A stretch of DNA of 64,000 nt, taken from assembly GCA_963804975.1 (NCBI GenBank), contig CAWDSG010000002.1:341015-405014 (forward strand). The letters run 5' to 3'. This DNA is from an uncultured bacterium (GTDB taxonomy: Bacteria; Patescibacteriota; Minisyncoccia; Phycocordibacterales; GWA1-40-21). The notes beneath the pieces are model-generated. The model saw only the letters and a program-made list of their open reading frames with translations, was not told the origin of the DNA and ran no database searches. Below, in pieces: positions 29,784 through 51,227 of the stretch. Made by a program: the position numbers and the translations under genes. Position 1 is the first letter of the stretch. Every line of letters starts with the position of its first letter.

Positions 29784-31007
29784 TTATTCATACCTCAGAG
29801 CGTCAATCGGATTCAGGTTTGATGCCCGAGCCGCAGGATAATATCCGAATACAATGCCGATAAATGCCGAAACGCAGAACGACAACAAAACCGGCCAAAT
29901 AGTAACTTGCGATTGCAATAATCCCGTGAGCGACAAGACGACAGAAATAATAATTCCCAGAATCACTCCGATGATGCCGCCAAAAACCGTCAGCACTATC
30001 GATTCAATCAAAAATTGCAGGCGAATATCGTGTTTTTTCGCGCCAATAGCTTTTCTCAAGCCAATTTCTTTCGTTCGCTCGGTCACGGTAGTGAGCATCA
30101 TATTCATAATGCCGATGCCTCCGACCACAAGCGAAATGCCGGCGATCGCGGCGAAAAGATATGTGAGCGTGGTGGTGATGGATGATGCGGTGGATAAAAT
30201 ATCCGCTTCGTTGAGCGTGCTGAAATCGGCCTTTGCCGGATCCGAGATATTATGCCTTGAAAGCAGAATTGATGTTGCCTGATTTTGCACATCGGTAACC
30301 AAAGCGGAACTTTGCGCTTCTATGCTTATTTCGCTGACATATTTGTTTCCGGTCAGATATTGTTGAGCCACGCTGATCGGAATATAAACAGCATCATCCG
30401 AATTGCTGAATCCGGAGCCGCCTTTCGCTTTTGTCACGCCGATAACGGTAAAAATATCTCCACTGATTCGTATGGTCTGCCCTACCGCTTCGGCGCCAAT
30501 GCCAAAAAGATCATCCCTGGTAGTTGGCCCAAGTACCGCGACTCTGGCCAAATTTGTCACTTGGTCTTGCGTAAAAAACATTCCGTCATCAACGCTGAAA
30601 TTGCGCACTTCAAGATAATCAGGAATCGTACCGATAATGGATGTGTTTGTATTAGTGCCTGCGGCTACCACTTGCTTTCTGGCGGTAACATCTGGGGCAA
30701 CGGCTTTTGCGCTTATCACTTCCTGCGCAAGGGCGGTTGAATCATCTAAAGTAAGCGTATTTGCGCTTCCTCTTCCCGCACTGACTGTGCTTCCGGGAGT
30801 CCTTTGGGCGCCGGGAGATACGACGACAAGGTTTGAACCGATTGACTGAATGCTTTTTTGGATGGAATTTGATGCGCCAGTGCCGATTGCCAGCATGGAA
30901 ATAACCGATGCGATGCCGATGACAATGCCAAGCATCGTCAAGCTTGTCCTGACTTTATTGGATAGAAGAGCTGATGATGTTTCGTGCATTAAATCTGATA
31001 TCGTCAT
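29784..31007 (-). CDS. ABC transporter permease, MacB/FtsX family
   Basis: N-terminal TM, large periplasmic domain, C-terminal 3-TM FtsX domain; 407 aa. Confidence 0.85.
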   Translation of the reverse strand: MTISDLMHETSSALLSNKVRTSLTMLGIVIGIASVISMLAIGTGASNSIQKSIQSIGSNLVVVSPGAQRTPGSTVSAGRGSANTLTLDDSTALAQEVISAKAVAPDVTARKQVVAAGTNTNTSIIGTIPDYLEVRNFSVDDGMFFTQDQVTNLARVAVLGPTTRDDLFGIGAEAVGQTIRISGDIFTVIGVTKAKGGSGFSNSDDAVYIPISVAQQYLTGNKYVSEISIEAQSSALVTDVQNQATSILLSRHNISDPAKADFSTLNEADILSTASSITTTLTYLFAAIAGISLVVGGIGIMNMMLTTVTERTKEIGLRKAIGAKKHDIRLQFLIESIVLTVFGGIIGVILGIIISVVLSLTGLLQSQVTIWPVLLSFCVSAFIGIVFGYYPAARASNLNPIDALRYE

Positions 31008-31025
31008 TGTGGTGATAAATTAAAA

Positions 31026-31736
31026 TTACGGATTTATTTTTACAATTCTTTTTGAGTGGCCTTTATCATCGCTTACGATAAGTCCGTCCCGGATATGAAT
31101 AATCCTATCCGCATGTTCCGCAACATCCCGTTCGTGAGTAATCAGAATAATGGTATGTCCTTCTTTTTTGTTCAGTTCCTGAAATGTTCCGAGTACGATT
31201 TCTCCCGTCTGTGTATCAAGATTTCCGGTCGGCTCATCCGCCATAATCAAAGACGGATCGTTAACGAGCGCCCGTGCAATTGCAACACGCTGAATTTCCC
31301 CTCCCGAAAGCTGATTTGAAAGATGACTCCACCTGCCTTCTTCAAGCCCTGCGGAAAGCAAAGCTTTTTTTGCAAGTTTTTCCCGTTCAATCGGTAATAT
31401 ATTAAGATACACGAGTGGCAATACGACATTTCTTAAAACCGTCGCCCGGCGCAAAAGATTGAAGGCCTGAAAAACAAAGCCGATTTTTTTCCCTCGTATA
31501 TCGGCAAGCTCATCTTCGGAAAGTTTTGAAACATCCTGGCCGTCAAGAAAATATGTTCCTGATGTAGGAGTATCAAGCGCGCCAAGAATGTGCATTAGGG
31601 TTGATTTTCCGGAGCCAGATGGCCCCATAATCGCTACGAATTCCCCGTCTTCAATTTTAAACGATACTCCTCTGACGGCTTTAGTTTCCGAATCGCCGTT
31701 TATGTATGTTTTTTTTATATCCTTGACTTCAATCAT
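31026..31736 (-). CDS. ABC transporter ATP-binding protein (MacB/LolD-type)
   Basis: 'GPSGSGKST' Walker A, 'LSGGEIQRVAIARAL', 'IMADEPTGNLD'; 236 aa. Confidence 0.9.
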   Translation of the reverse strand: MIEVKDIKKTYINGDSETKAVRGVSFKIEDGEFVAIMGPSGSGKSTLMHILGALDTPTSGTYFLDGQDVSKLSEDELADIRGKKIGFVFQAFNLLRRATVLRNVVLPLVYLNILPIEREKLAKKALLSAGLEEGRWSHLSNQLSGGEIQRVAIARALVNDPSLIMADEPTGNLDTQTGEIVLGTFQELNKKEGHTIILITHERDVAEHADRIIHIRDGLIVSDDKGHSKRIVKINP

Positions 31737-31740
31737 TTGT

Positions 31741-31830
31741 ATTATGCGAAAATTATGCGAATGTTGCGAATATCAACGAAAATTAATTTGAATTTATTCG
31801 TAGCCATTCGTTTTATTCGCATAATTTTCG
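31741..31830. promoter_or_regulatory. iterated TTATGCGAA motif cluster (3 direct + 1 inverted copy) inside efflux operon
   Basis: aTTATGCGAAaaTTATGCGAAtgTTGCGAAtat at 31741-31772 and inverted ttattcgcataa at 31813-31824. Confidence 0.35.
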
Positions 31831-31834
31831 TATA

Positions 31835-33793
31835 TTATCTTCCTCCTGTGAATGTTCCCACGGCGCCGCCTCCGAATTCTCCGACTCTGATAGCGCCGCC
31901 GGCTCCGCCAATTGTTCTTGTTGTCGCTTGCGTTGCGGCAGTTTTTACCGATGAGGCGCTGCCCGTGATTGTTCTTGTAACAACCATTTCTCCTTCCGTA
32001 AGGCCTGAAAGAATCTCAGTTTCGGTATCATTTGATATGCCGATTGTCACTTCAACTTTTACGACATTCGGCTGCGCAGCATTTGAAAGCGATTGCGCCT
32101 GGCTTTGCACGGAACTGCTGCCATATCTGAATTGCTTTGTCGTTGAACCGTTTGCAAATGTAGATGATGCGAAAGTGGACGAAGCAAAAGTTGAGGAAGC
32201 GAAATTCCTGTTTCTTGTTGAAGAACCAAAACTGCCATTGAAATTACCCATAAAACTTGAAGACGCAATTTTCGCCACAAGAACATATTTTTTCCCGCCG
32301 GAAGTTGTAATTGCCGAACTTGAAATCATAAGCACATTCTGATGATCAATGATATTTATATTCGCTATGGCGGTCATTCCTGTTTTTATAGAATCATTCT
32401 GTTCATCAAGTGCAATCTGAACGCCGTAGCTGACAACGCCTTGGCTTACTGTTCCGAGAGGGTCCACATATCTTACATGCCCGGCGATAGTGATATTTGG
32501 CAATGCGTCAAAAGTAATCTGTACCGGATTATTTGCCGCCACTTTTGCCGCATCAACTTCGTTTAAAGTCAGATTAACGACTCGTTGCGTTGTGATAAGC
32601 GTGCCAAGCGAATCCGATGACGAAACTTGCTGGCCAAGCTGTGCGGTAAGGCCGCCAATTTGTCCGTCAAACGGCGCAGTGATTATCCTGCTCTGATAAT
32701 TCTGCTCCGCGTTTGCAAGATTTGCATTTGCGTTATCAAGAGCTGATTTTGAAACGGTAACATCATCAGGATTTGGCGGGGCGATTTTCAAAGCTAAAAA
32801 TTGCTGGTCGTTTGCGAGATTTGTCACGGCGTTATTATAAGATTGGAGCAGAGATATAAGCGAACTGATTGCCGAATCGGCGCCTGATCTTGCGCTTGAA
32901 GCTCCCGATTTATCTGAATTTAATGTAGCTTGCGCAGTTGAACCTTGCGCTACGCTGTACGAACTGAATAAGGAAGTCATATTGTCAAAATAAGTCCTTA
33001 TTTGGTTTAAATATGAAATTGAATCATTGAGGAGAGTAACAAGTTCAGTAGAACTTATTGTCGAACTCGTTGCATTATTTATCTCTTCGTCCCACGCAAT
33101 AAGATTTGATCCGACAGAAACTCTGCCGGCTGCAACGCTGTTAACCAATTGCTGATTTAAAAAATCTATTCCGTTTATCATTAAGCTTGGATTTACGCCG
33201 GTTATATTCTGAAAAAACGGATCTGTGCTGATATAAACGGAATTTGATACCGATGAATATGCGTTTCGTATGCCAAGCAATATATTTTGCTGGTCGTTTG
33301 CAAGCCCAGTTTCGTCGGATTGAATCGTATTTTTGATTGACTGCAAATCCGATGCGGTTGGACCACCGACAAGTTTGTCATAACTTGCCTGAGCGCTTTC
33401 CACGCTTGCTTTTGCCTGATTGAGCGATTGGAGAGCATTTTTTCCGTCAAGTACAGCTATCACCTGCCCTGCTTTTACAAAATCGCCATTTTGAACTTTC
33501 ACTGAAACAATCTGACCAAGCGTTTGTGTCTGCCCCACTGTCTGCGGCTTTATACTTACTTCTCCGAGGGTGGCCACTTGCCCTGATCCACTGACAGAGA
33601 CCGCCAAATCCCCTCTTTGCACTTTGCCGAAAACATATTGAGTGACACTTGCTGATCCGCCTTTTGCAAACAGCACATAGACAAGCGATACGAAGATAAT
33701 TACCGAAACGATTGTAAGCGGTTTGTGCGCTGAGGCAAACGGTTTGATTTTTATTGTCCAGGCAACTTTAATTTTTGATAGAGCTGTTTTCAT
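31835..33793 (-). CDS. HlyD/MacA-type periplasmic adaptor with long low-complexity C-terminal extension
   Basis: N-terminal TM, biotin-lipoyl-like hairpins ('VQRGDLAVSVSGSGQV', 'KVQNGDFVKAGQVIAVLDG'), long coiled coil, then 'FASSTFASSTFASSTF' and G-rich tail; 652 aa. Confidence 0.75.
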   Translation of the reverse strand: MKTALSKIKVAWTIKIKPFASAHKPLTIVSVIIFVSLVYVLFAKGGSASVTQYVFGKVQRGDLAVSVSGSGQVATLGEVSIKPQTVGQTQTLGQIVSVKVQNGDFVKAGQVIAVLDGKNALQSLNQAKASVESAQASYDKLVGGPTASDLQSIKNTIQSDETGLANDQQNILLGIRNAYSSVSNSVYISTDPFFQNITGVNPSLMINGIDFLNQQLVNSVAAGRVSVGSNLIAWDEEINNATSSTISSTELVTLLNDSISYLNQIRTYFDNMTSLFSSYSVAQGSTAQATLNSDKSGASSARSGADSAISSLISLLQSYNNAVTNLANDQQFLALKIAPPNPDDVTVSKSALDNANANLANAEQNYQSRIITAPFDGQIGGLTAQLGQQVSSSDSLGTLITTQRVVNLTLNEVDAAKVAANNPVQITFDALPNITIAGHVRYVDPLGTVSQGVVSYGVQIALDEQNDSIKTGMTAIANINIIDHQNVLMISSSAITTSGGKKYVLVAKIASSSFMGNFNGSFGSSTRNRNFASSTFASSTFASSTFANGSTTKQFRYGSSSVQSQAQSLSNAAQPNVVKVEVTIGISNDTETEILSGLTEGEMVVTRTITGSASSVKTAATQATTRTIGGAGGAIRVGEFGGGAVGTFTGGR

Positions 33794-33821
33794 TAGTTGA
33801 GCAATTATTATTAATAAATAT

Positions 33822-34301
33822 TTAATTTTGATTTGCCGGCGGCGGAGGCGGAAGCACTCTTATCAATCTTGCAAGAAGCACCGGATCGGTCGATGACGAA
33901 GGCGAACCGAATGCAACAACAAAATCGTCAGTTTTTAGATCATCAGTTTTTTCATCTCCATTTGCGTCTTTGATTTGCGTTGAACTTGAAATTTCAATTG
34001 TTTTTTCAATGCCTGAGCGGTCTTCAATGGTGATAAGCGGCAGTTTCAGTTCAACAATCTGCCCGACTGCGCCATGTGCACTTTCAAAATCTCCTTTTTG
34101 AATTCCCATTATTTTACTGTTTGGACCGCCATTTATTTCATGAAAGTAATTTTCACCAACCTTGTTGTAAAAAGAGGCCTTTTCAAATCCTACGGACATA
34201 CCGGCCTGAAAAACAAAAAGTAAAACCAAAAGCCCTATTATAATATAGATGATTATTTTGAATTTTCGTGTTCCAAAAATATTTTTTATTTCCTCAACCA
34301 T
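33822..34301 (-). CDS. membrane-anchored hypothetical protein
   Basis: 159 aa, single TM, C-terminal PPPPP. Confidence 0.45.
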   Translation of the reverse strand: MVEEIKNIFGTRKFKIIIYIIIGLLVLLFVFQAGMSVGFEKASFYNKVGENYFHEINGGPNSKIMGIQKGDFESAHGAVGQIVELKLPLITIEDRSGIEKTIEISSSTQIKDANGDEKTDDLKTDDFVVAFGSPSSSTDPVLLARLIRVLPPPPPANQN

Positions 34302-34312
34302 AGTTTTATTGA

Positions 34313-34726
34313 TTAATTGTTAAATGAATAAGACAATTCTTTTTTGCTGTTTGTCGCATATCGGATGGATATGAAAATAACCAGCATGGAAACAAGCGTA
34401 ATTGTGATGGCAAAGAATGGCAGCGAATCAACGAGCGAAAGCGCAAATTCGCCAAAATTGCCGAGTACAAGCTTGCTGTCTGAAAAGATAAGCGATAAAT
34501 AAGCGGAAAAACCGGATAGCTCCAATGCGTTAAACAAGTTGACCGCAAAACCAATAAATGAAATTATTGAAACGGAAAAGACGGAAAAACCGATTATTTT
34601 CCTATTCTTATTTTTTCTTTCGATTGCGGTTTCAATGCTTTTCAAAATTTTATTTTTCAAATCCGCCGGCGGATTGATGTCATCAAGCGCCAGATACACA
34701 TTCGTATTTATGTAATTTTTTTTCAT
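34313..34726 (-). CDS. polytopic membrane protein, possible anti-sigma factor
   Basis: 137 aa, immediately downstream of ECF sigma gene; cytoplasmic N-terminus then 3-4 TM. Confidence 0.4.
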   Translation of the reverse strand: MKKNYINTNVYLALDDINPPADLKNKILKSIETAIERKNKNRKIIGFSVFSVSIISFIGFAVNLFNALELSGFSAYLSLIFSDSKLVLGNFGEFALSLVDSLPFFAITITLVSMLVIFISIRYATNSKKELSYSFNN

Positions 34727-34759
34727 ATCGTTTATTGCTGATTTATACGATTTTAAGGG

Positions 34760-35377
34760 CTATTTCGGTGCATTTGCAAGTTTTTTCCTCAATATCAGAA
34801 GGGCTCTGCGATGCTGGCTTTTAACGGTGTTTACCGATTTTTTCAGTATTTTCCCGATTTCTTCAAAATCCAGACCTTCACGATATCGGAGCAATAAAAC
34901 CTCCCGGTATTGGACGGTCAACTCATTAAGCAGCCGTTCAATTATCGCTTTTTGCTCGCCTATTTCAAAAATCTCATGCGCGGTTTTTTCAATACCAACA
35001 AGATTGTCCTCAAAAAAATTATCGCCTTCTTCATTTTCAAATTGCGAAAATGAAATATTTTTCTTTTTCCGCATCCAGTCAATAGTTGTGTTCCTGACTA
35101 TCGTATAAAGCCATGTCTTGAATTTTTGCCCTTGCTTGAAATTTTTCATATTTTTCCACAACTTGACGAAGCTTTCCTGGGAAATTTCCTCGGCATCATT
35201 TTTATTTCCGCAAAGCCGATAGCTGAAATTATAAACCGGTTTGAGATAGCGATTCACAAGTTCTACAAAAGCCGGACTATTCCCTTTCATATAATCAAGA
35301 ATAAGTTCTTCGTCTTTTTTTAATTTGTAATCGTTTTGCACAGACATTATTATATATGAATTATTATATTTAAACAC
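34760..35377 (-). CDS. ECF-type sigma-70 family factor
   Basis: Region 2 'VNRYLKPVYNFSYRL ... TWLYTIVRNTTIDWMRKKK', region 4 'YREVLLLRYREGLDFEEIGKILKKSVNTVKSQ'; likely start at Met 35347. Confidence 0.8.
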   Translation of the reverse strand: MFKYNNSYIIMSVQNDYKLKKDEELILDYMKGNSPAFVELVNRYLKPVYNFSYRLCGNKNDAEEISQESFVKLWKNMKNFKQGQKFKTWLYTIVRNTTIDWMRKKKNISFSQFENEEGDNFFEDNLVGIEKTAHEIFEIGEQKAIIERLLNELTVQYREVLLLRYREGLDFEEIGKILKKSVNTVKSQHRRALLILRKKLANAPK

Positions 35378-35398: not shown

Positions 35399-36748
35399 AT
35401 GAAACCTGTTTTGCGAATCATAGGCAGTATAATCTTACTTTTTATTTTTGTTGTATTTTTTGCTCATGCTCAACTGCTTACTCCCGAGGAAAGAGCCCAG
35501 CTTGAAGCCGAGCTTGCGCAGGTGCAGGCGCAGGAAGCACAAGCGCAAAAAGATCTTGCCACGGCCCAGTCAAAATCATCTTCCCTGCAAAACGACATCA
35601 ATCTCTTGAATGCGAAAATCAAAGCCGAACAATTGGATATTCAGGCAAAAAATCTTCTCATCAAGACGCTTGGCAGCAATATTACCGATAAGCAGAACGA
35701 AATCAACAGCTTGAACAGCCAGATTGAATCAAATAAAAATGCCGTAGAAGATATGTTCAGGCAGCTTGATAAAACGGATTCAATCACTCTTATTGAAATT
35801 CTCCTTTCAAATGAGACCATATCCGGTTTTGTGGAAGATTCGCAAAATATAGAAACTTTGCAGCAAAATCTGGATGAATTATCTTTGGAATTGCAGAATG
35901 AAGAAGCTTCAACAACTGCGGCAAAAAAAGTGCTTGTAACAAAGCAAAATGCAGCAATCGATGCGCGTTATGCAATTCAACAAGAGCAAAAAACAGTTCA
36001 GGCGAATCAGACCCAGCAAAAGCAGCTTCTTTCAATCAGCAAAAATAATGAGAAAGCTTACACGGCTCTTGTAACCGCGGCAAAAAAACAAGCCGATGCA
36101 ATAAACGCAAAACTTTTCTCTCTTGCCGGCGGTTCAAATCCAATTCAATTTGGCCAAGCGTATCGGTACGCTCTTACCGCTCAGAGAAAAACAGGAATTG
36201 ATCCTGCATTTCTTCTTGCGATTTTTACCCAAGAATCAAATCTTGGAACGAATCAAGGCACATGTTATCTGACCAATGCGGTGACTGGCGCGGGGGTGAA
36301 CGTAAAATCCGGCAAAACGTATACGAATGTCATGAGTCCGGCGCGCGACGTGCCTCCTTTTCTTACAATTACGAATAATTTAAACGTTGACCCGTATCAT
36401 ACGATTGTTTCTTGTCCGCAATCTTTCGGCTGGGGCGGAGCAATGGGACCGGCACAATTTATCGCTTCGACATGGATGGGTTTGACGAGCCGAATCGCTT
36501 CAGCGCTTGGATTTAGCGGCATGGCGAATCCGTGGAGTCCGGAAGATGCATTTATGGCATCTGCAATCTATTTGTCCGATCTTGGCGCATCAGGCGGCGG
36601 ATATACGGCAGAAATCAATGCCGCATGCAGATATTATTCCGGAAAATCATGCTCTGCATCCGGACTTGCCGCAAGCTACGGCTCAAGCGTCATGGCTCTT
36701 GCCGCAACAATCCAGCAGACAGAAATAAACAAACTCCAGGGATATTAA
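35399..36748 (+). CDS. secreted coiled-coil protein with C-terminal Rpf/lysozyme-like transglycosylase domain (PcsB-like architecture)
   Basis: Signal peptide, about 230-aa coiled coil, then 'FTQESNLG...GAMGPAQFIASTWMGL...PWSPEDAFMASAIYL'. Confidence 0.6.
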   Translation: MKPVLRIIGSIILLFIFVVFFAHAQLLTPEERAQLEAELAQVQAQEAQAQKDLATAQSKSSSLQNDINLLNAKIKAEQLDIQAKNLLIKTLGSNITDKQNEINSLNSQIESNKNAVEDMFRQLDKTDSITLIEILLSNETISGFVEDSQNIETLQQNLDELSLELQNEEASTTAAKKVLVTKQNAAIDARYAIQQEQKTVQANQTQQKQLLSISKNNEKAYTALVTAAKKQADAINAKLFSLAGGSNPIQFGQAYRYALTAQRKTGIDPAFLLAIFTQESNLGTNQGTCYLTNAVTGAGVNVKSGKTYTNVMSPARDVPPFLTITNNLNVDPYHTIVSCPQSFGWGGAMGPAQFIASTWMGLTSRIASALGFSGMANPWSPEDAFMASAIYLSDLGASGGGYTAEINAACRYYSGKSCSASGLAASYGSSVMALAATIQQTEINKLQGY

Positions 36749-36769: not shown

Positions 36770-38131
36770 TTATTGATTAATTATTATTCTTTTTGATGGA
36801 GTAGAACTGGCGACACACAATTGGGCTTTGCCCGATTTAAAATCTTTAAACACAGTCATTTCACCTGGCGAAGCAAATACATTATTTGTTTTCATTATGA
36901 AAGAATCTTGGCTTTTTCCTTTCTCCAGTATAGTAGCAAACTTTATTGGAGAATTTGTCGCCGGATAAAATTCTAGAAGTTCTTTGCCAAATTGAGCAAC
37001 TACAGAATCTTCCCATCGATTTCGATAAATACCTTCGTATTTTGAATATACTGGCAACTTACCTTCATGTTTTGTTAGATTATCCAATCCGTTGTAAATC
37101 ATTTCAAAAACCCCTCTGCCGATACCAGATCCTTCGCTAGATTGGGAATTTGTAAGAACGATGACGCCCAAATCTAATGCTGGATCAAGAAATATTCGTG
37201 TTATAAATCCAAAGTATCCGCCACCGTGTCCAATGATCTTTCTTTTGGTAATGCGAATTATATCAAATCCAAGCCCGTATTCGTCATTCCCTTCTGTTTT
37301 TTCATGGCCTTTCATTATTTCTTTTTTTGATTCACGATTTATCAATGATTTTTTTGATTCTAATGACAAAGCGGAAAGATGTTTAGCAAGGTCGCTGACA
37401 TTCGAAAGAAAACCAGTGGCCGGAGCATATGCATTTGTCTTATAATGTTCAAAAACTTCTTCATCTTTATCTGGCATCTCTCTTCCATAACCGGTAGCGA
37501 CATTTTTTAACGATTTCGAATAATCGACAGTCGTTGAGTTCATTTGGAGGGGTTTTAGAATATTTTTTTCAATATAATCTTTGTATGTAAGACCGCTTAT
37601 TTTTTTAATTATCAGACCGAGTAGTGAGAAACCGTAATTCGTATATTTGAATCTTGTTCCATTTTCAAATGTAAGAGAAGATATGCCAAAAGATTTTTTC
37701 AGATCTGTCGGAAAATCACCCGTTTCCCAATGCGGCGTATCGCCATCACGGAAAAGCCCTGCTGTATGGGAAAGGATTTGCCGAATCGTTATATTTTTTG
37801 AATTTATATTTTTGCTTTTCGCCCTGAACCACGGAATGTAATCAGCGACTTTATCATCTAGACAAAGTTTTCCTTTCTCAACTAATTGTATTATCGCAAC
37901 TGATGTAAATGTTTTTGAAATTGAAGCAATGTGATACAACGTCTTTTCATTTACAGGTATTTTCTTTTCAAGATCGGTATAACCAAAACCTCGCGCGTAT
38001 ACTAAATTTCCTTTATACATAATTCCGATTGATAATCCGGGAGTTTTGTCGTATCTGATTTTAATTGGCAACCAAATATCTATAAGATGTGTCGTATTTT
38101 TAATTATTTGTGAAAGTTGTTCTTTTTTCAT
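36770..38131 (-). CDS. beta-lactamase-family serine hydrolase (class C/DD-peptidase-like)
   Basis: 'IASISKTFTSVAI' SxxK, 'YTNYG' YxN, 'IGHGGG' KTG-like; 453 aa. Confidence 0.8.
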   Translation of the reverse strand: MKKEQLSQIIKNTTHLIDIWLPIKIRYDKTPGLSIGIMYKGNLVYARGFGYTDLEKKIPVNEKTLYHIASISKTFTSVAIIQLVEKGKLCLDDKVADYIPWFRAKSKNINSKNITIRQILSHTAGLFRDGDTPHWETGDFPTDLKKSFGISSLTFENGTRFKYTNYGFSLLGLIIKKISGLTYKDYIEKNILKPLQMNSTTVDYSKSLKNVATGYGREMPDKDEEVFEHYKTNAYAPATGFLSNVSDLAKHLSALSLESKKSLINRESKKEIMKGHEKTEGNDEYGLGFDIIRITKRKIIGHGGGYFGFITRIFLDPALDLGVIVLTNSQSSEGSGIGRGVFEMIYNGLDNLTKHEGKLPVYSKYEGIYRNRWEDSVVAQFGKELLEFYPATNSPIKFATILEKGKSQDSFIMKTNNVFASPGEMTVFKDFKSGKAQLCVASSTPSKRIIINQ

Positions 38132-38151
38132 GGATTGATTATAACATTTTT

Positions 38152-38658
38152 TTATTCCGTTTTAAATGAATCCATCTTCTCCTGAATATTCTTTTGGAAA
38201 TATCCTTTGTATCGCTTCTGAAGAGCCGGCAGTTTCCAGTCGGAACCTTTAATTCTTCCTCGGCACAATTTTGTTCTGCATTTGCATTCCATATCGTAAT
38301 TTCCGCTGTCAGTCATAACGTCATCATATGTAACTTCCTCGTCCTTTTCTATATCTCTCATTGCGTGGGGCCAGTTATCTTTAATGCCTACGTTTGGATC
38401 GCATGAATGATTCATTAGAAAACCAGCCGAAGGATTATTAATATCCAACGGACATTCTTCCTCGTTATCATTTATTTCATAACAAAGCTGTTTCCAAAGA
38501 ATAAAATTCGGCTTCTTTTTGATTTCTTCTTTGGTCAAAATCTGAACATCTTCTGTCCTATCAATCAGTTCGCCTTTCAGTATTTTTTCTTTAGCAAAAA
38601 GACCTTTTCCTTTCTCGGGAGTATTTCTGACTTCAATTTTTGGGTTTATATAGTTCAC
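38152..38658 (-). CDS. SET-domain protein (putative protein lysine methyltransferase)
   Basis: 'GKGLFAKEKILKGELI', 'FLMNHSCDPNV' (NHSC-PN SET signature), 'EEVTYDD', post-SET Cys cluster 'CKCRTKLCRG'; 168 aa. Confidence 0.8.
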   Translation of the reverse strand: MNYINPKIEVRNTPEKGKGLFAKEKILKGELIDRTEDVQILTKEEIKKKPNFILWKQLCYEINDNEEECPLDINNPSAGFLMNHSCDPNVGIKDNWPHAMRDIEKDEEVTYDDVMTDSGNYDMECKCRTKLCRGRIKGSDWKLPALQKRYKGYFQKNIQEKMDSFKTE

Positions 38659-38659
38659 T

Positions 38660-39388
38660 TTAACGCTTATTATATCTATAAATATTTACTTTCTGCGAAG
38701 ATGAAGCTGTGTTGAAAACCTGTCTCTCTGTATTTGTTGCATGCATTCCAAACGGCTGTATTTGATGCGCTTTTAAAACCGTCTGCTCAAGAAGATTAAC
38801 CTCCCTCTGTTCCCCGTCGGTTTTGTTGGAACCGATTTTTTGAAGAATGCCGGCATGCTTGTTTATGGATTGATTGAAAAAGTTATTGATATTGTTTCTA
38901 GTCGGCGTTGTTGTGGCCATAAATCTCATATTATTATCAAAAGCATTTACATTCCTGCTGAAATTCTGCTCGATTTGCTGCCTGTATTTTGGTGTTAATT
39001 TATTTTTATTCGCAAGCGTTTCCGCTTCGTTCAATCTGCGCACGGCTTTTTCCGCGTTCCATGAAGCTTTTTCTACCGGAGTAATAGCTAAAGCATCGCG
39101 CATCGGCTCGGTGACATTTACTTTTATGGGATAAAGCAGATCGCCGGGTACAGTGCCTTCGGCTGCGTATGTAAGAGTTCCTCCGGCTATGACAAAAATC
39201 AGCAAAGAAGCGAGAGCGTACGCAAATGATTTATGAATGCTGAAAAAATTCCAAACATTTACCTTTGGCATATACGGAGAAAGAACAGGAGTTTTCATTA
39301 CTCGTTCAAAAATAATATTTTTCTCATCTTTTGTGAGATTAATATTTCTGATTTCTTGTATTGCTTTATTTATTCTGTCTTTATCCAT
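38660..39388 (-). CDS. anti-sigma-like membrane protein (DUF5667-like)
   Basis: Cytoplasmic N-terminus, one TM, extracytoplasmic 'PGDLLYPIKVN' then helical repeats; sits directly downstream of ECF sigma gene. Confidence 0.5.
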   Translation of the reverse strand: MDKDRINKAIQEIRNINLTKDEKNIIFERVMKTPVLSPYMPKVNVWNFFSIHKSFAYALASLLIFVIAGGTLTYAAEGTVPGDLLYPIKVNVTEPMRDALAITPVEKASWNAEKAVRRLNEAETLANKNKLTPKYRQQIEQNFSRNVNAFDNNMRFMATTTPTRNNINNFFNQSINKHAGILQKIGSNKTDGEQREVNLLEQTVLKAHQIQPFGMHATNTERQVFNTASSSQKVNIYRYNKR

Positions 39389-39399
39389 ATATTTATTTT

Positions 39400-39921
39400 T
39401 TATTTCATTTCGTGAAATTTTTCCCGTAATTTTTCAAGGCCTCTCGCAATGCGGACCGAAACGATGCTTGCCGTAATACCTAAAACGGAAGCGATTTCCT
39501 GAGGCAAGAGGTCTTCGGCAAACCGCAGATACAGAACATCTTTATATATCGGTTCAAACGTCTCTATTTCTTCAAGTATCATCTTTGTTTCTGCAGAAGA
39601 TACAATATTTAAATGAGCCTGTTCGTCGGCTGGTTCAAAAATACTCCCCGCATCCTCTTTGTCTATAAGCGCATCCAACGATTCGGATTTTTTCTTGCGA
39701 TACCAGTCAACGATCCTGTTGTGCGCGAGCGTAAACAAATAAGCTCTTTCTTTTCTGATTTTTTCGCCTGAATTCTGTGCTTTCCAAAGTTCGGTAAAAA
39801 TATCCTGCACAATATCAATTGCTTTTTCTCGGTCGGAAACCCGCAAGAAACAATATCGAAAAAGCGAATCTGCCTCTTTTTCGTATATTTCCGTAAATTT
39901 TTGTTTTATATGTACTTCCAT
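39400..39921 (-). CDS. ECF-type sigma-70 family factor
   Basis: 'DIVQDIFTELW ... AYLFTLAHNRIVDWYRKKK' region 2 and 'YKDVLYLRFAEDLLPQEIASVLGITASIVSVRIARG' region 4; 173 aa. Confidence 0.8.
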   Translation of the reverse strand: MEVHIKQKFTEIYEKEADSLFRYCFLRVSDREKAIDIVQDIFTELWKAQNSGEKIRKERAYLFTLAHNRIVDWYRKKKSESLDALIDKEDAGSIFEPADEQAHLNIVSSAETKMILEEIETFEPIYKDVLYLRFAEDLLPQEIASVLGITASIVSVRIARGLEKLREKFHEMK

Positions 39922-40095
39922 AGATTATGACGTATAAACAGGCCTGTTCTTTCAAGAATAATGAATTAAAAATAATAATACAATAAATAATTCGCTATGT
40001 CCATGAAAGAGTTGTATAATTGAGACGTCTTTATTTATGTAGATAGAGTATGTCAAAACGCCGTCTACTATTAACAATCTTAATTTATAAATATT

Positions 40096-41022
40096 ATGAA
40101 AACAAAAAAATTACTCAATTCATTTGTTGTTCTCTCGGTTCTTTTTGGCTTGGTTATGGCAAACACAGCGCTTGCGAACGATAATGGCCAGAATAATTCC
40201 CAGAATAAACCTGAAAAAGTGAATAATAACGGAGGTTTTTTGGGCGGACTTTGGAACGGCTTCTTAAATCGCACAAAAGCCAGCGGTAATAGCAATGCCG
40301 AAAGAGCAAATATTATTTCAGGCATGGTTTCTTCTGTGAGTGGCAACACGATAACAGTTTCTGTTGTGGAAAGGAAACTTCTTAATGTCCCGGCAAATAG
40401 ATATTTCGGTACGAGTACGAGACAGGAATATGGTTCAAGTACAAAACCGATGTTCGGTACGAGTACGAGGCCGGAATTTAATAAAAATATGAAGCCGGAA
40501 ATTTCAACAAGCACTGTTTTGTACTCGGTAGATGCGACAAACGCAAAAATTTACGAAGGCAGAGCGACGACAACGGTTTCAAATATAGCTGTCGGAGATG
40601 TGATTTGGGTTCAAGGCAAAGTGACAGATCAGAATGTGGCAGCCAAAGTGATATTAGTTATGGCAAAAAATCCTATTCCTAAAAAAGGAAATGAAGGGAA
40701 AAATAATCAATTTATCGGAGATGGCCAGCCGATAGTGGCAGGAACGATTTCTTCAATAAGCGCTTCCTCACTGACAATTACAAACAGCGGAAATAATACC
40801 TATACAGTTGACATAACGAGTGCAAAAATATTCGAAGGAAATAAAACCGCTTCATCATCGGATTTGGCAGTCGGCGATGCGGTAGTCGTCCAAGGCACTG
40901 TGAATGGGACTTCAATTACTGCTTCAAGCGTCATTGGCCAGAATGCAAAAGCGGAAAAAGGAGAATCAATGGGATTTTTCGGATCCATCGGCTCATTCTT
41001 CTCCAGATTATTTAAGTTTTAA
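40096..41022 (+). CDS. secreted repeat protein (DUF5666-like beta-rich repeats)
   Basis: Signal peptide 'MKTKKLLNSFVVLSVLFGLVMANTALA'; three repeats of 'G.V.S.SGNTITV ... VGD.V.VQG.V'; internal tandem 'FGTSTR(Q/P)E'; divergent from ECF sigma gene. Confidence 0.55.
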   Translation: MKTKKLLNSFVVLSVLFGLVMANTALANDNGQNNSQNKPEKVNNNGGFLGGLWNGFLNRTKASGNSNAERANIISGMVSSVSGNTITVSVVERKLLNVPANRYFGTSTRQEYGSSTKPMFGTSTRPEFNKNMKPEISTSTVLYSVDATNAKIYEGRATTTVSNIAVGDVIWVQGKVTDQNVAAKVILVMAKNPIPKKGNEGKNNQFIGDGQPIVAGTISSISASSLTITNSGNNTYTVDITSAKIFEGNKTASSSDLAVGDAVVVQGTVNGTSITASSVIGQNAKAEKGESMGFFGSIGSFFSRLFKF

Positions 41023-50294: not shown

Positions 50295-51227
50295 ATGTTT
50301 AATAAAAATATAAAAACGGCTTTCTTTGGCAATTCGGAATTTTCTCTGATTGTACTTCTCGAGCTTAAAAAACTCGGTTTTTTGCCTGATATTGTAGTTA
50401 CCACTCCCGACAAGCCGGTTGGCAGAAAAATGATTCTTACGCCGACACAGACGAAGGTTTGGGCGCAGGACAATTCAATAGAATATATTGAACCGGTAAA
50501 ACTGAAAGATGAAAGTTTTCTAGAAAAGATGAAAGAATACAATCTTTTTATCGTTGCTTCCTACGGGAAAATAATCCCGAAAGCACTTATTGATATTCCT
50601 AAATATAAAGCGCTTAATATTCATCCTTCGCTTCTGCCGAAATATCGCGGTCCATCGCCCTTGCAGGAGCAGATTTTAAATAATGAGAAAAATGTCGGTG
50701 TTTCAATAATGCTTATAGACGAACAAATGGATCACGGGGCGATTTTGGCACAAAAAAAAGTGGACCTACCTGACCGGCAGGCAGGAATCCCTTCTTGGCC
50801 CGTTGGTTTTAATGAATTGTCTGAAATTCTAGGAAAAGAAGGTGCTAAGTTGTTGATGAAAATTTTACCGGAATGGATAAAAGGCAAGATCAAGCCGAAG
50901 GAACAAAATCACAGCGAAGCGACTTTTACAAAAAAAGTTGAAAAGCAGGACGGACTAATAATCTGTCCCGATGTCTCACATCAGGAAAATGTTGATAAAA
51001 ACCCCGAGGTTAAACCTCGGGGAAACGAAACATATAAAGATTATTTGAAATATTTGGCCTATGAAGATTGGCCGGGAACATATTTTGAAGCTACGCACAA
51101 TGGTAAAAAATTGAAAGTTATCGTTAAAAAAGCTGTTTGGAAAGATGATGAACTTGAAATTCTCCGCGTTGTTCCGGAAGGTAAAAAAGAGATGGATTAT
51201 AAGGACTTTTTGCGAGGCTTAAGATAA
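50295..51227 (+). CDS. fmt: methionyl-tRNA formyltransferase
   Basis: 'HPSLLPKYRGPSPLQ' SLLP motif; 310 aa. Contains an in-frame copy of the CCCCGAGG palindromic unit at 50991-51022. Confidence 0.9.
   Translation: MFNKNIKTAFFGNSEFSLIVLLELKKLGFLPDIVVTTPDKPVGRKMILTPTQTKVWAQDNSIEYIEPVKLKDESFLEKMKEYNLFIVASYGKIIPKALIDIPKYKALNIHPSLLPKYRGPSPLQEQILNNEKNVGVSIMLIDEQMDHGAILAQKKVDLPDRQAGIPSWPVGFNELSEILGKEGAKLLMKILPEWIKGKIKPKEQNHSEATFTKKVEKQDGLIICPDVSHQENVDKNPEVKPRGNETYKDYLKYLAYEDWPGTYFEATHNGKKLKVIVKKAVWKDDELEILRVVPEGKKEMDYKDFLRGLR
50991..51022. repeat. GC-rich palindromic unit, copy P2, embedded in-frame in fmt
   Basis: gttgataaaaaCCCCGAGGttaaaCCTCGGGG identical over 31/32 nt to P1; no T-run. Confidence 0.8.

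Follow-up and report, generated by a model that had tools for sequence, protein, structure and literature searches.

A conserved ECF sigma module with a SET-domain gene and a serine hydrolase gene as likely passengers in a Parcubacteria chromosome

Introduction

In SigW-RsiW of Bacillus subtilis and RpoE-RseA of Escherichia coli, a group IV sigma factor is co-transcribed with a single-pass anti-sigma factor, and the system is autoregulated. This study investigated a locus of related design at positions 36770-41022 of a 64-kb stretch of DNA from an uncultured bacterium (contig CAWDSG010000002.1); the whole stretch is hereafter called the window, and coordinates refer to it unless another locus is named. 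The locus comprises genes for an extracytoplasmic function (ECF) sigma factor, a DUF5667 membrane protein, a SET-domain protein, and a serine hydrolase on the minus strand, and a divergent gene for a secreted DUF5666 protein. The original prediction, made from the DNA alone, held that the SET protein and the hydrolase form one system under the control of the sigma module. Our results revealed that the sigma, DUF5667, and DUF5666 genes are a conserved unit, and the locus is likely this ECF signalling unit together with two passenger genes, those for the SET protein and the hydrolase, in a lineage-specific slot.

The SET protein and the hydrolase have described counterparts as well. In the SET enzymes DIM-5, G9a, and SET7/9, the final Tyr of the ELxYDY motif belongs to the active site, and the Tyr two positions before it acts as the Phe/Tyr switch. 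Among bacteria, SET genes were recorded in 83 of 390 genomes in 2007 and in more than 500 genomes by 2014 (PMC3980110). BurB, a small bacterial SET enzyme, acts on a small molecule as a methionine S-methyltransferase and binds methionine through main-chain atoms (PMC12542666). Pab87 of Pyrococcus abyssi is a self-compartmentalizing D-stereospecific peptidase that removes the terminal D-Ala of muropeptides (PMC2651629). Our literature searches returned nothing relevant on SET proteins in Patescibacteria, nor on DUF5667 or DUF5666 proteins in partnership with ECF sigma factors.

Results

The five open reading frames (ORFs) of the original prediction, their strands, and their domain assignments were borne out by the ORF list and by Pfam and NCBIfam searches. 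These genes, and the one that lies beyond the hydrolase gene, are as follows (lengths in amino acids, aa).

39400-39921, minus strand: ECF sigma factor, 173 aa, with Sigma70_r2 and Sigma70_r4
38660-39388, minus strand: anti-sigma-like membrane protein with DUF5667
38152-38658, minus strand: SET and post-SET protein, 168 aa, GTG start
36770-38131, minus strand: S12/beta-lactamase-family serine hydrolase, 453 aa, PF00144
40096-41022, plus strand: secreted DUF5666 repeat protein, 308 aa, divergent from the sigma gene
35399-36748, plus strand: secreted lytic transglycosylase with a coiled coil and SLT_2 (Pfam, 9.7e-10), convergent with the hydrolase gene

From the sigma gene through the DUF5667 and SET genes to the hydrolase gene, the intergenic gaps are 11, 1, and 20 bp, and no terminator-like site was found on the minus strand from 39400 to 36770.

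We compared the locus with those of four related genomes, for which six loci (L088 to L094) were fetched, some of them duplicating a genome. All four relatives share the order of a DUF5666-like gene on the opposite strand, the sigma gene, and the DUF5667 gene, with identities to the window proteins of 55-71% for sigma, 52-64% for DUF5667 (47-64% where the comparison started from this protein), and 35-57% for DUF5666; the divergent DUF5666 homologues are approximately 300 aa long. The DUF5667 gene lies directly 3' of the sigma gene in each of the four relatives and also in an unrelated pair at another locus (L095). The sigma gene, the DUF5667 gene, and the divergent DUF5666 gene are a conserved unit, and the predicted ECF sigma and anti-sigma-like membrane pair with a divergent secreted protein proved to be genuine by domains and by synteny.

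The sigma factor carries Sigma70_r2 at aa 13-78 (7.9e-11) and Sigma70_r4 at aa 126-167 (3.3e-08), and it scored 70.9 bits against the NCBIfam model of ECF sigma factors (TIGR02937, sigma70-ECF; cut-off 42.9). Its restriction to regions 2 and 4 and its length agree with the ECF family, the members of which comprise approximately 170-200 aa; no NCBIfam equivalog scored above its cut-off. The DUF5667 protein scored 35.1 bits against the Pfam domain (cut-off 27), which opens with PGDLLYPIK at aa 78. A single hydrophobic segment starts at approximately aa 55, with a maximum 15-residue hydropathy (KD15) of 2.33, and the resulting layout places approximately 50 N-terminal aa in the cytoplasm and the DUF5667 domain on the extracytoplasmic side of a single transmembrane segment. 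The Pfam scan of this protein recognized no known anti-sigma domain (zf-HC2 or RskA), and we infer an anti-sigma role from gene position only. The divergent protein scored 35.8 bits against DUF5666 (cut-off 27) and has an N-terminal hydrophobic leader; units reading FGTSTR or GSSTKP are repeated between its beta domains.

The intergenic region between the sigma and DUF5666 genes was aligned across five genomes, those of the window and the four relatives, and the following elements were identified.

39929-39954, minus strand: ECF-type promoter of the sigma operon, TGAAAG-N16-CGTC, its blocks invariant and its spacer variable in the five genomes
40004-40029, plus strand: ECF-type promoter of the DUF5666 gene, TGAAAG-N16-CGTC, kept in L090 to L094 and with one mismatch (CGAC) in L088
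39975-40003, minus strand: housekeeping-type promoter of the sigma operon, TGGACA-N17-TATTAT, with a TG before the -10 element and a scan score of 10/12
40039-40068, plus strand: inverted repeat or hairpin, GTAGAY ... GTCTAC, with a 6-bp stem in the 5' untranslated region of the DUF5666 gene

TGAAAG-N16-CGTC matched the 64-kb window exactly only twice, and both matches lie back to back in this intergenic region. The motif recurs at equivalent positions in L088 to L094, the sigma-side copy being exact in all four relatives and the DUF5666-side copy in three. The original prediction had asked for an ECF promoter motif upstream of 39921, and one conserved in relatives was found there. The sigma gene has an apparently autoregulatory promoter with a conserved -35 element and a CGT-containing -10 element, as is typical of ECF systems, and this sigma factor presumably uses it. 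The blocks of the housekeeping-type promoter, TCTTTCATGGACA and TATTGTATTAT, are kept in all five genomes, with varying spacers.

The sigma ATG begins 8 nt past CGTC, so the sigma mRNA is probably leaderless; no Shine-Dalgarno-like sequence is visible ahead of the four minus-strand genes. An exact search of the 64-kb window located no TGAAAG-N16-CGTC before the SET or hydrolase gene. One-mismatch matches to the motif numbered 8 in the window, against 3.9 expected. These matches were considered as possible further regulon members: the one that was checked (50530-50555) lies inside fmt, and the other five were put down to chance, the total being near the expected value. The GTAGAY...GTCTAC stem is kept in the five genomes, with both sides changed in L092; located between the DUF5666 promoter and the start codon, it may represent a hairpin in the mRNA or a palindrome bound by a protein. 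No Rfam match at E<=1 was obtained for the 33-43 kb part of the window, which includes this intergenic region.

What follows the DUF5667 gene differs among the relatives. The relatives carry in this place a Peptidase_M3 gene (L088), a LUD_dom gene alone (L094), LUD_dom and P-type ATPase genes (L092), or LUD_dom, P-type ATPase, and M3 genes (L090). In each relative, these genes are followed by a small ORF and then by BacA on the opposite strand. Past BacA, an SLT_2 transglycosylase gene is present in L088, L092, and L094, its products being 67-83% identical to that of 35399-36748 in the window; the L090 locus stops within BacA. No LUD_dom, BacA, M3 peptidase, or P-type ATPase gene is present in the window. 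Because the relatives carry differing genes here and the window none of them, the stretch from the DUF5667 gene to the transglycosylase gene is a variable slot. The SLT_2 transglycosylase gene is its conserved far boundary, and the SET and hydrolase genes are the filling found in the window lineage and, among the genomes compared, only here. The transglycosylase, which combines a long coiled coil at its N-terminus with an SLT_2 domain at its C-terminus, is usually paired with BacA in the relatives.

The combination of sigma, DUF5667, SET, and hydrolase genes recurred at none of the 4 relatives with the sigma module, none of 5 loci of SET orthologues, none of 80 wider SET loci, and none of 23 hydrolase loci. 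The original prediction had made the grouping depend on conserved gene neighbourhoods in related genomes; the cluster is not conserved, and the four relatives hold other slot genes.

The SET protein matched Pfam SET at 2.9e-11 (44.1 bits, cut-off 22.4). Its NHSCDPN motif lies at aa 83-89, and N83, H84, C86, and N89 do not vary across the 27 aligned sequences; the same is true of C125, C127, and C132 of the post-SET cluster CxCx4C, which C86 complements. Both features had been read correctly from the DNA, and both are invariant in the family. The family profile matched the MLL1 SET domain at 9e-27. The AlphaFold2 model had a predicted local distance difference test (pLDDT) score of 94.6, and its Foldseek matches comprised MLL1, NSD, and ASH1L (probability 1.00) and also BurB. 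The fold, the NHxCxPN cofactor motif, and the post-SET Cys cluster of a SET protein are all present.

The catalytic Tyr is the exception. Where SET enzymes have a Tyr ending ELxF/YDY, the window protein reads EEVTYDD: residue 113 is Asp (codon GAC, 38322-38320, minus strand), whereas all 26 aligned homologues have Tyr, and the position aligns with the final Tyr of the MLL1 motif EELTYDY. The replacement requires a single-base change, TAC to GAC. Database entries from three sources (NCBI, ENA, and Logan) share this protein sequence, and Asp113 accordingly does not resemble a mistake confined to one assembly. The window protein also has R at position 128, where 23 of the 26 homologues have G, and it departs from the consensus at 2 of 25 highly conserved columns, compared with 0-4 in other family members. 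In BurB, replacing the active-site Tyr124 by Ala almost abolished activity and replacing it by Phe kept more than 60% (PMC12542666), the alignment of Tyr124 with residue 113 being unverified. The substitution suggests that the window protein is probably a weak or inactive methyltransferase. The original prediction had tied its grouping to a catalytic Tyr/Asn context, of which the Asn residues of NHSCDPN are kept and the Tyr is lost.

We also considered a BurB-like small-molecule SET enzyme; the fold is close, yet the family profile is far nearer to MLL-type SET with post-SET. Because the methionine contacts of BurB are made by main-chain atoms, sequence cannot settle whether the substrate is a small molecule.

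The survey of SET proteins returned at least 515 matches across many phyla in a collection with one genome per species, and the best 80 loci were inspected. With this count, and with the more than 500 genomes of the 2014 review (PMC3980110), the statement that a SET protein is unusual in bacteria does not hold. The five SET orthologues (49-68% identity) all lie in contexts without sigma, DUF5667, or hydrolase genes: one after DnaX, two divergent from KsgA, one after a pilin-like gene, and one between FtsJ and an M50 peptidase. Hydrolase, DUF5667, and DUF5666 genes were absent within approximately 8 kb of the SET gene at all 80 wider loci, one of which (L016) has an unrelated ECF sigma gene. 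Three of the five orthologue contexts adjoin rRNA methyltransferase genes, KsgA/RrnaAD twice and FtsJ once, at the following positions.

L082, 5169-6516: SET orthologue locus by an rRNA methyltransferase gene
L179, 4193-5513: SET orthologue locus by an rRNA methyltransferase gene
L178, 4282-6592: SET orthologue locus by an rRNA methyltransferase gene, at which the SET gene overlaps the start of the M50 (RseP-like) peptidase gene

The hydrolase matched PF00144 at 1.4e-61 and carries the SxxK (S70/K73), YxN (Y163/N165), and HxG (H302/G304) motifs, which do not vary among 19 sequences. The hydrolase and 18 aligned homologues lack a hydrophobic segment at the N-terminus; the maximum KD15 was 0.83 for the hydrolase and at most 1.29 for the homologues, compared with 2.39 and 3.23 for two secreted neighbours. 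The active-site motifs of AmpC and AmpH are thus present and their export by a signal peptide is not, and the scores against the NCBIfam AmpC and AmpH profiles were all far below the cut-offs.

The best sequence match in the PDB was 2QMI, the structure of Pab87 (2e-38). In the AlphaFold2 model (pLDDT 83, below 50 at residues 127-139 and 147-162), a penicillin-binding-protein (PBP)-like S12 domain is followed by eight predicted strands at aa 367-449 that would form a lipocalin-like barrel, the arrangement of the Pab87/CubicO type. Full-length Foldseek alignments were obtained with 2qmi (474 columns, the best), 7spn, 6ksu, and 9sn1, and the matches include Pab87, the IS11 esterase, the SurE cyclase, and the Lip3 DL-peptidase. 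The 703 homologues at E<=1e-40 are nearly all 445-465 aa long; wherever a source is named, it is a Patescibacteria lineage. Sequence features and the model identify the hydrolase as a predicted cytoplasmic Pab87-like S12 enzyme, not a periplasmic enzyme of the AmpC type. The description as an AmpC/DD-peptidase-like serine hydrolase therefore stands for the PF00144 family and its active-site motifs and fails for the AmpC likeness, and the label "periplasmic" is contradicted by the missing N-terminal segment.

A promoter of its own precedes the hydrolase gene.

38138-38166, minus strand: sigma-70-like promoter of the hydrolase gene, TTTAAA-N17-TATAAT, with a TG-preceded extended -10 element and a scan score of 10/12

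This promoter, TTTAAA-N17-TGTTATAAT, ends 6 nt 5' of the hydrolase ATG. The hydrolase mRNA also appears to be leaderless, the ATG lying 6 nt past TGTTATAAT (38131-38146, minus strand). Upstream of hydrolase orthologues, TGTTATAAT recurs in L097 and L098, and -10-like hexamers are present in L095 and L111.

Hydrolase neighbourhoods were inspected at 23 orthologous loci. The neighbours were mostly unrelated, and most of the inspected orthologues stand alone; one exception is L095, in which the unrelated sigma/DUF5667 pair mentioned above lies 4 kb off. Two of the 23 loci, L097 and L115, carry a SET gene of another subtype by the hydrolase gene. In L115 (3540-5329), where recombinase and primase-like genes surround the hydrolase gene, it is followed after a 2-bp gap by a short SET gene of the NHSYEPN type that lacks the post-SET region. 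In L097 (3606-6353), the order is SET, zinc-finger protein, small membrane protein, DUF1653, hydrolase, and then a convergent BacA; the genes from SET to hydrolase are co-directional with gaps of 3-34 bp, and the SET protein is 35% identical to that of the window. The chance of finding two SET genes at most 1.5 kb from a hydrolase gene at 23 loci (48.9 kb of flank) was put by a rough Poisson calculation at P of approximately 0.002-0.03; this value is post hoc, assumes random gene placement, and depends on the assumed SET density. Viral contigs were considered as a source of hydrolase and SET pairs and returned one weak hydrolase match only.

The nearest homologues of every protein come from Paceibacterota/Parcubacteria metagenome bins, and the surroundings in the window are ordinary chromosomal genes (DnaK, DnaJ, GrpE, DnaX, Dus, Def, and Fmt); the locus, on a contig of 606 kb, is part of the chromosome of a small-genome Parcubacteria/Paceibacterota bacterium. 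Insertion of the SET and hydrolase genes by a mobile element was unsupported, the flanking direct and inverted repeats being only AT-rich chance matches and the composition having no step. A defence system was rejected as well, none of the five proteins matching PADLOC. No paralogues of the DUF5667, DUF5666, SET, or hydrolase proteins occur elsewhere in the window, and the sole related gene is that for a second ECF sigma factor, 28% identical to the first. It belongs to a second ECF module (29784-35377, minus strand), which resembles an ECF-controlled efflux operon.

34760-35377, minus strand: second ECF sigma factor
34313-34726, minus strand: small membrane protein
33822-34301, minus strand: membrane-anchored protein
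31835-33793, minus strand: HlyD-like protein, with a short low-complexity repeat, SSTFASSTFASSTFA, near its C-terminal third
31026-31736, minus strand: ABC ATPase
29784-31007, minus strand: MacB/FtsX permease

Discussion

The findings favour the reading in which a conserved ECF signalling unit is followed by two passenger genes. On the basis of its architecture and promoter conservation, and following the ECF logic of SigW-RsiW, the unit probably works as follows. The DUF5667 protein would use its short N-terminus in the cytoplasm to keep the sigma factor inactive at the membrane, and an extracytoplasmic signal sensed through DUF5667 would release it. The released sigma factor would direct RNA polymerase to the two back-to-back TGAAAG-N16-CGTC promoters, of which the sigma-side one would amplify the sigma/anti-sigma operon and the other would express the secreted DUF5666 protein; the conserved sigma-70-type promoter would supply basal expression of the sigma operon.

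We treated the SET and hydrolase genes as passengers because both products are, by prediction, cytoplasmic and neither gene has a conserved tie to the module. The SET gene starts 1 bp past the DUF5667 stop codon, which makes its co-transcription with the sigma operon probable in this genome; read-through may also extend to the hydrolase gene, although that gene has its own promoter. Several points weigh against regarding the two genes as passengers of an ECF unit. The comparison of core synteny covered four related genomes, and the anti-sigma role of DUF5667 proteins is a putative one. With gaps of 1 and 20 bp and no predicted terminator, both genes could be induced by the sigma factor here. 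Asp113 might mean altered chemistry instead of lost function, and the adjacency of SET and hydrolase genes in L097 and L115 hints at a functional link between them rather than at independent passengers.

The view of the original prediction, in which all five genes form one envelope-stress ECF regulon with the SET protein and the hydrolase as dedicated outputs, draws on the close spacing of the co-directional minus-strand genes, the lack of a terminator-like site between them, and the autoregulated ECF promoter directly upstream. We nevertheless judge it highly improbable, since the combination is conserved in none of the four relatives that keep the sigma module and is absent from the five SET orthologue loci, the 80 wider SET loci, and the 23 hydrolase loci, where L095 with its unrelated sigma/DUF5667 pair is the exception to note. 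The two putative outputs are predicted to be cytoplasmic and not envelope proteins, neither gene is preceded by the ECF motif, the hydrolase gene has its own promoter, and the SET protein lacks the catalytic Tyr; the claim that the module controls both as a system fails on conservation. That last substitution also raises an explanation that overlaps with the passenger reading, in which the SET gene is a decaying remnant, recently inactivated and becoming a pseudogene. Asp113, a single-base change away from the Tyr of all 26 homologues, the altered G128 (now R), and the non-ancestral position of the gene point in this direction, yet we consider decay unlikely: the ORF is intact and full length, the other invariant residues (N83, H84, C86, N89, C125, C127, and C132) are kept, the 2 of 25 columns off consensus are within the family range, the model is confident, and the occurrence of the sequence under NCBI, ENA, and Logan does not resemble a single-assembly error.

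The SET and hydrolase genes could alternatively be two functionally paired genes, unconnected with the ECF module, that landed in the slot as a unit, for example a cytoplasmic protein or peptide methylation step coupled with a hydrolysis step. The two further loci with a SET gene beside the hydrolase gene (L115 and L097) and the Poisson estimate for them argue for such a pair, but they are offset by the three different SET subtypes and the differing gene orders in the window, L097, and L115, by the absence of the hydrolase gene from all 85 SET-anchored loci and of a SET gene from 21 of the 23 hydrolase loci, and by the missing catalytic Tyr. The probability is moreover post hoc and presumes random placement, and accessory genes may simply cluster in surroundings such as the recombinase and primase-like genes of L115. 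The independent pair is, in our assessment, quite unlikely. A bolder form of it, that a SET protein and a predicted cytoplasmic Pab87-like hydrolase form a recurrent functional pair in Parcubacteria, assembled at least twice from different SET subtypes (in the window and L097, and in L115), appears very unlikely; if true, it would imply an unrecognized cytoplasmic pathway, such as methylation-coupled peptide or protein processing, and the Asp113 variant would either play a regulatory, non-catalytic part in the pair or be an enzyme of altered chemistry.

The passenger reading bears on several questions. The sigma factor, the SET protein, and the hydrolase are members of known families; this study defines a conserved, experimentally untouched ECF module of candidate-phyla-radiation bacteria, consisting of a sigma factor, a DUF5667 partner, and a DUF5666 target. 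TGAAAG-N16-CGTC could serve to map the regulon in other Patescibacteria genomes, and the results support reading DUF5667 proteins as anti-sigma-like sensors. They also remove an over-interpretation, a eukaryote-type methyltransferase under envelope-stress control, and flag the window SET copy as one without its catalytic residue. The weak association of SET and hydrolase genes, if it holds in a larger survey, would give a starting point for identifying what bacterial SET proteins act on.

Comparison with known systems

The hydrolase shares with Pab87 a length of approximately 450 aa, the lack of a signal peptide, the SxxK/YxN/HxG motifs, and a PBP-like domain followed by an eight-stranded barrel (PMC2651629). 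It is, however, only 26% identical to Pab87, and its predicted domain orientation differs, with a full-length root-mean-square deviation (rmsd) of 11.5 A; a D-stereospecific peptidase activity would be expected of it by analogy.

The SET protein has the SET fold, the NHSCxPN cofactor motif, and the CxCx4C post-SET cluster in common with KMT2/MLL, and its model superimposes on BurB (9l4v) with an rmsd of 2.4 A in Foldseek. Points of difference are its single-domain build (168 aa), a C-terminal helix specific to the family (DW..PELQxRYxGYF), and, in the window copy, Asp where the catalytic Tyr of ELxYDY is expected.

The signalling unit resembles SigW-RsiW and RpoE-RseA in that its sigma factor consists of regions 2 and 4 alone, the next gene downstream encodes a membrane protein, and an autoregulated promoter, presumably used by this sigma factor, is accompanied by a second, housekeeping promoter. 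The -35 and -10 elements TGAAAG...CGTC, with a 16-nt spacer, resemble the SigW-type consensus TGAAAC-N16-CGTA. Unlike RsiW and RseA, the membrane partner has a short N-terminus of approximately 50 aa without a recognizable zf-HC2 or RskA domain, and its outer part is an uncharacterized DUF5667 ectodomain. The only conserved target of the window module beyond its own operon would be the secreted DUF5666 protein.

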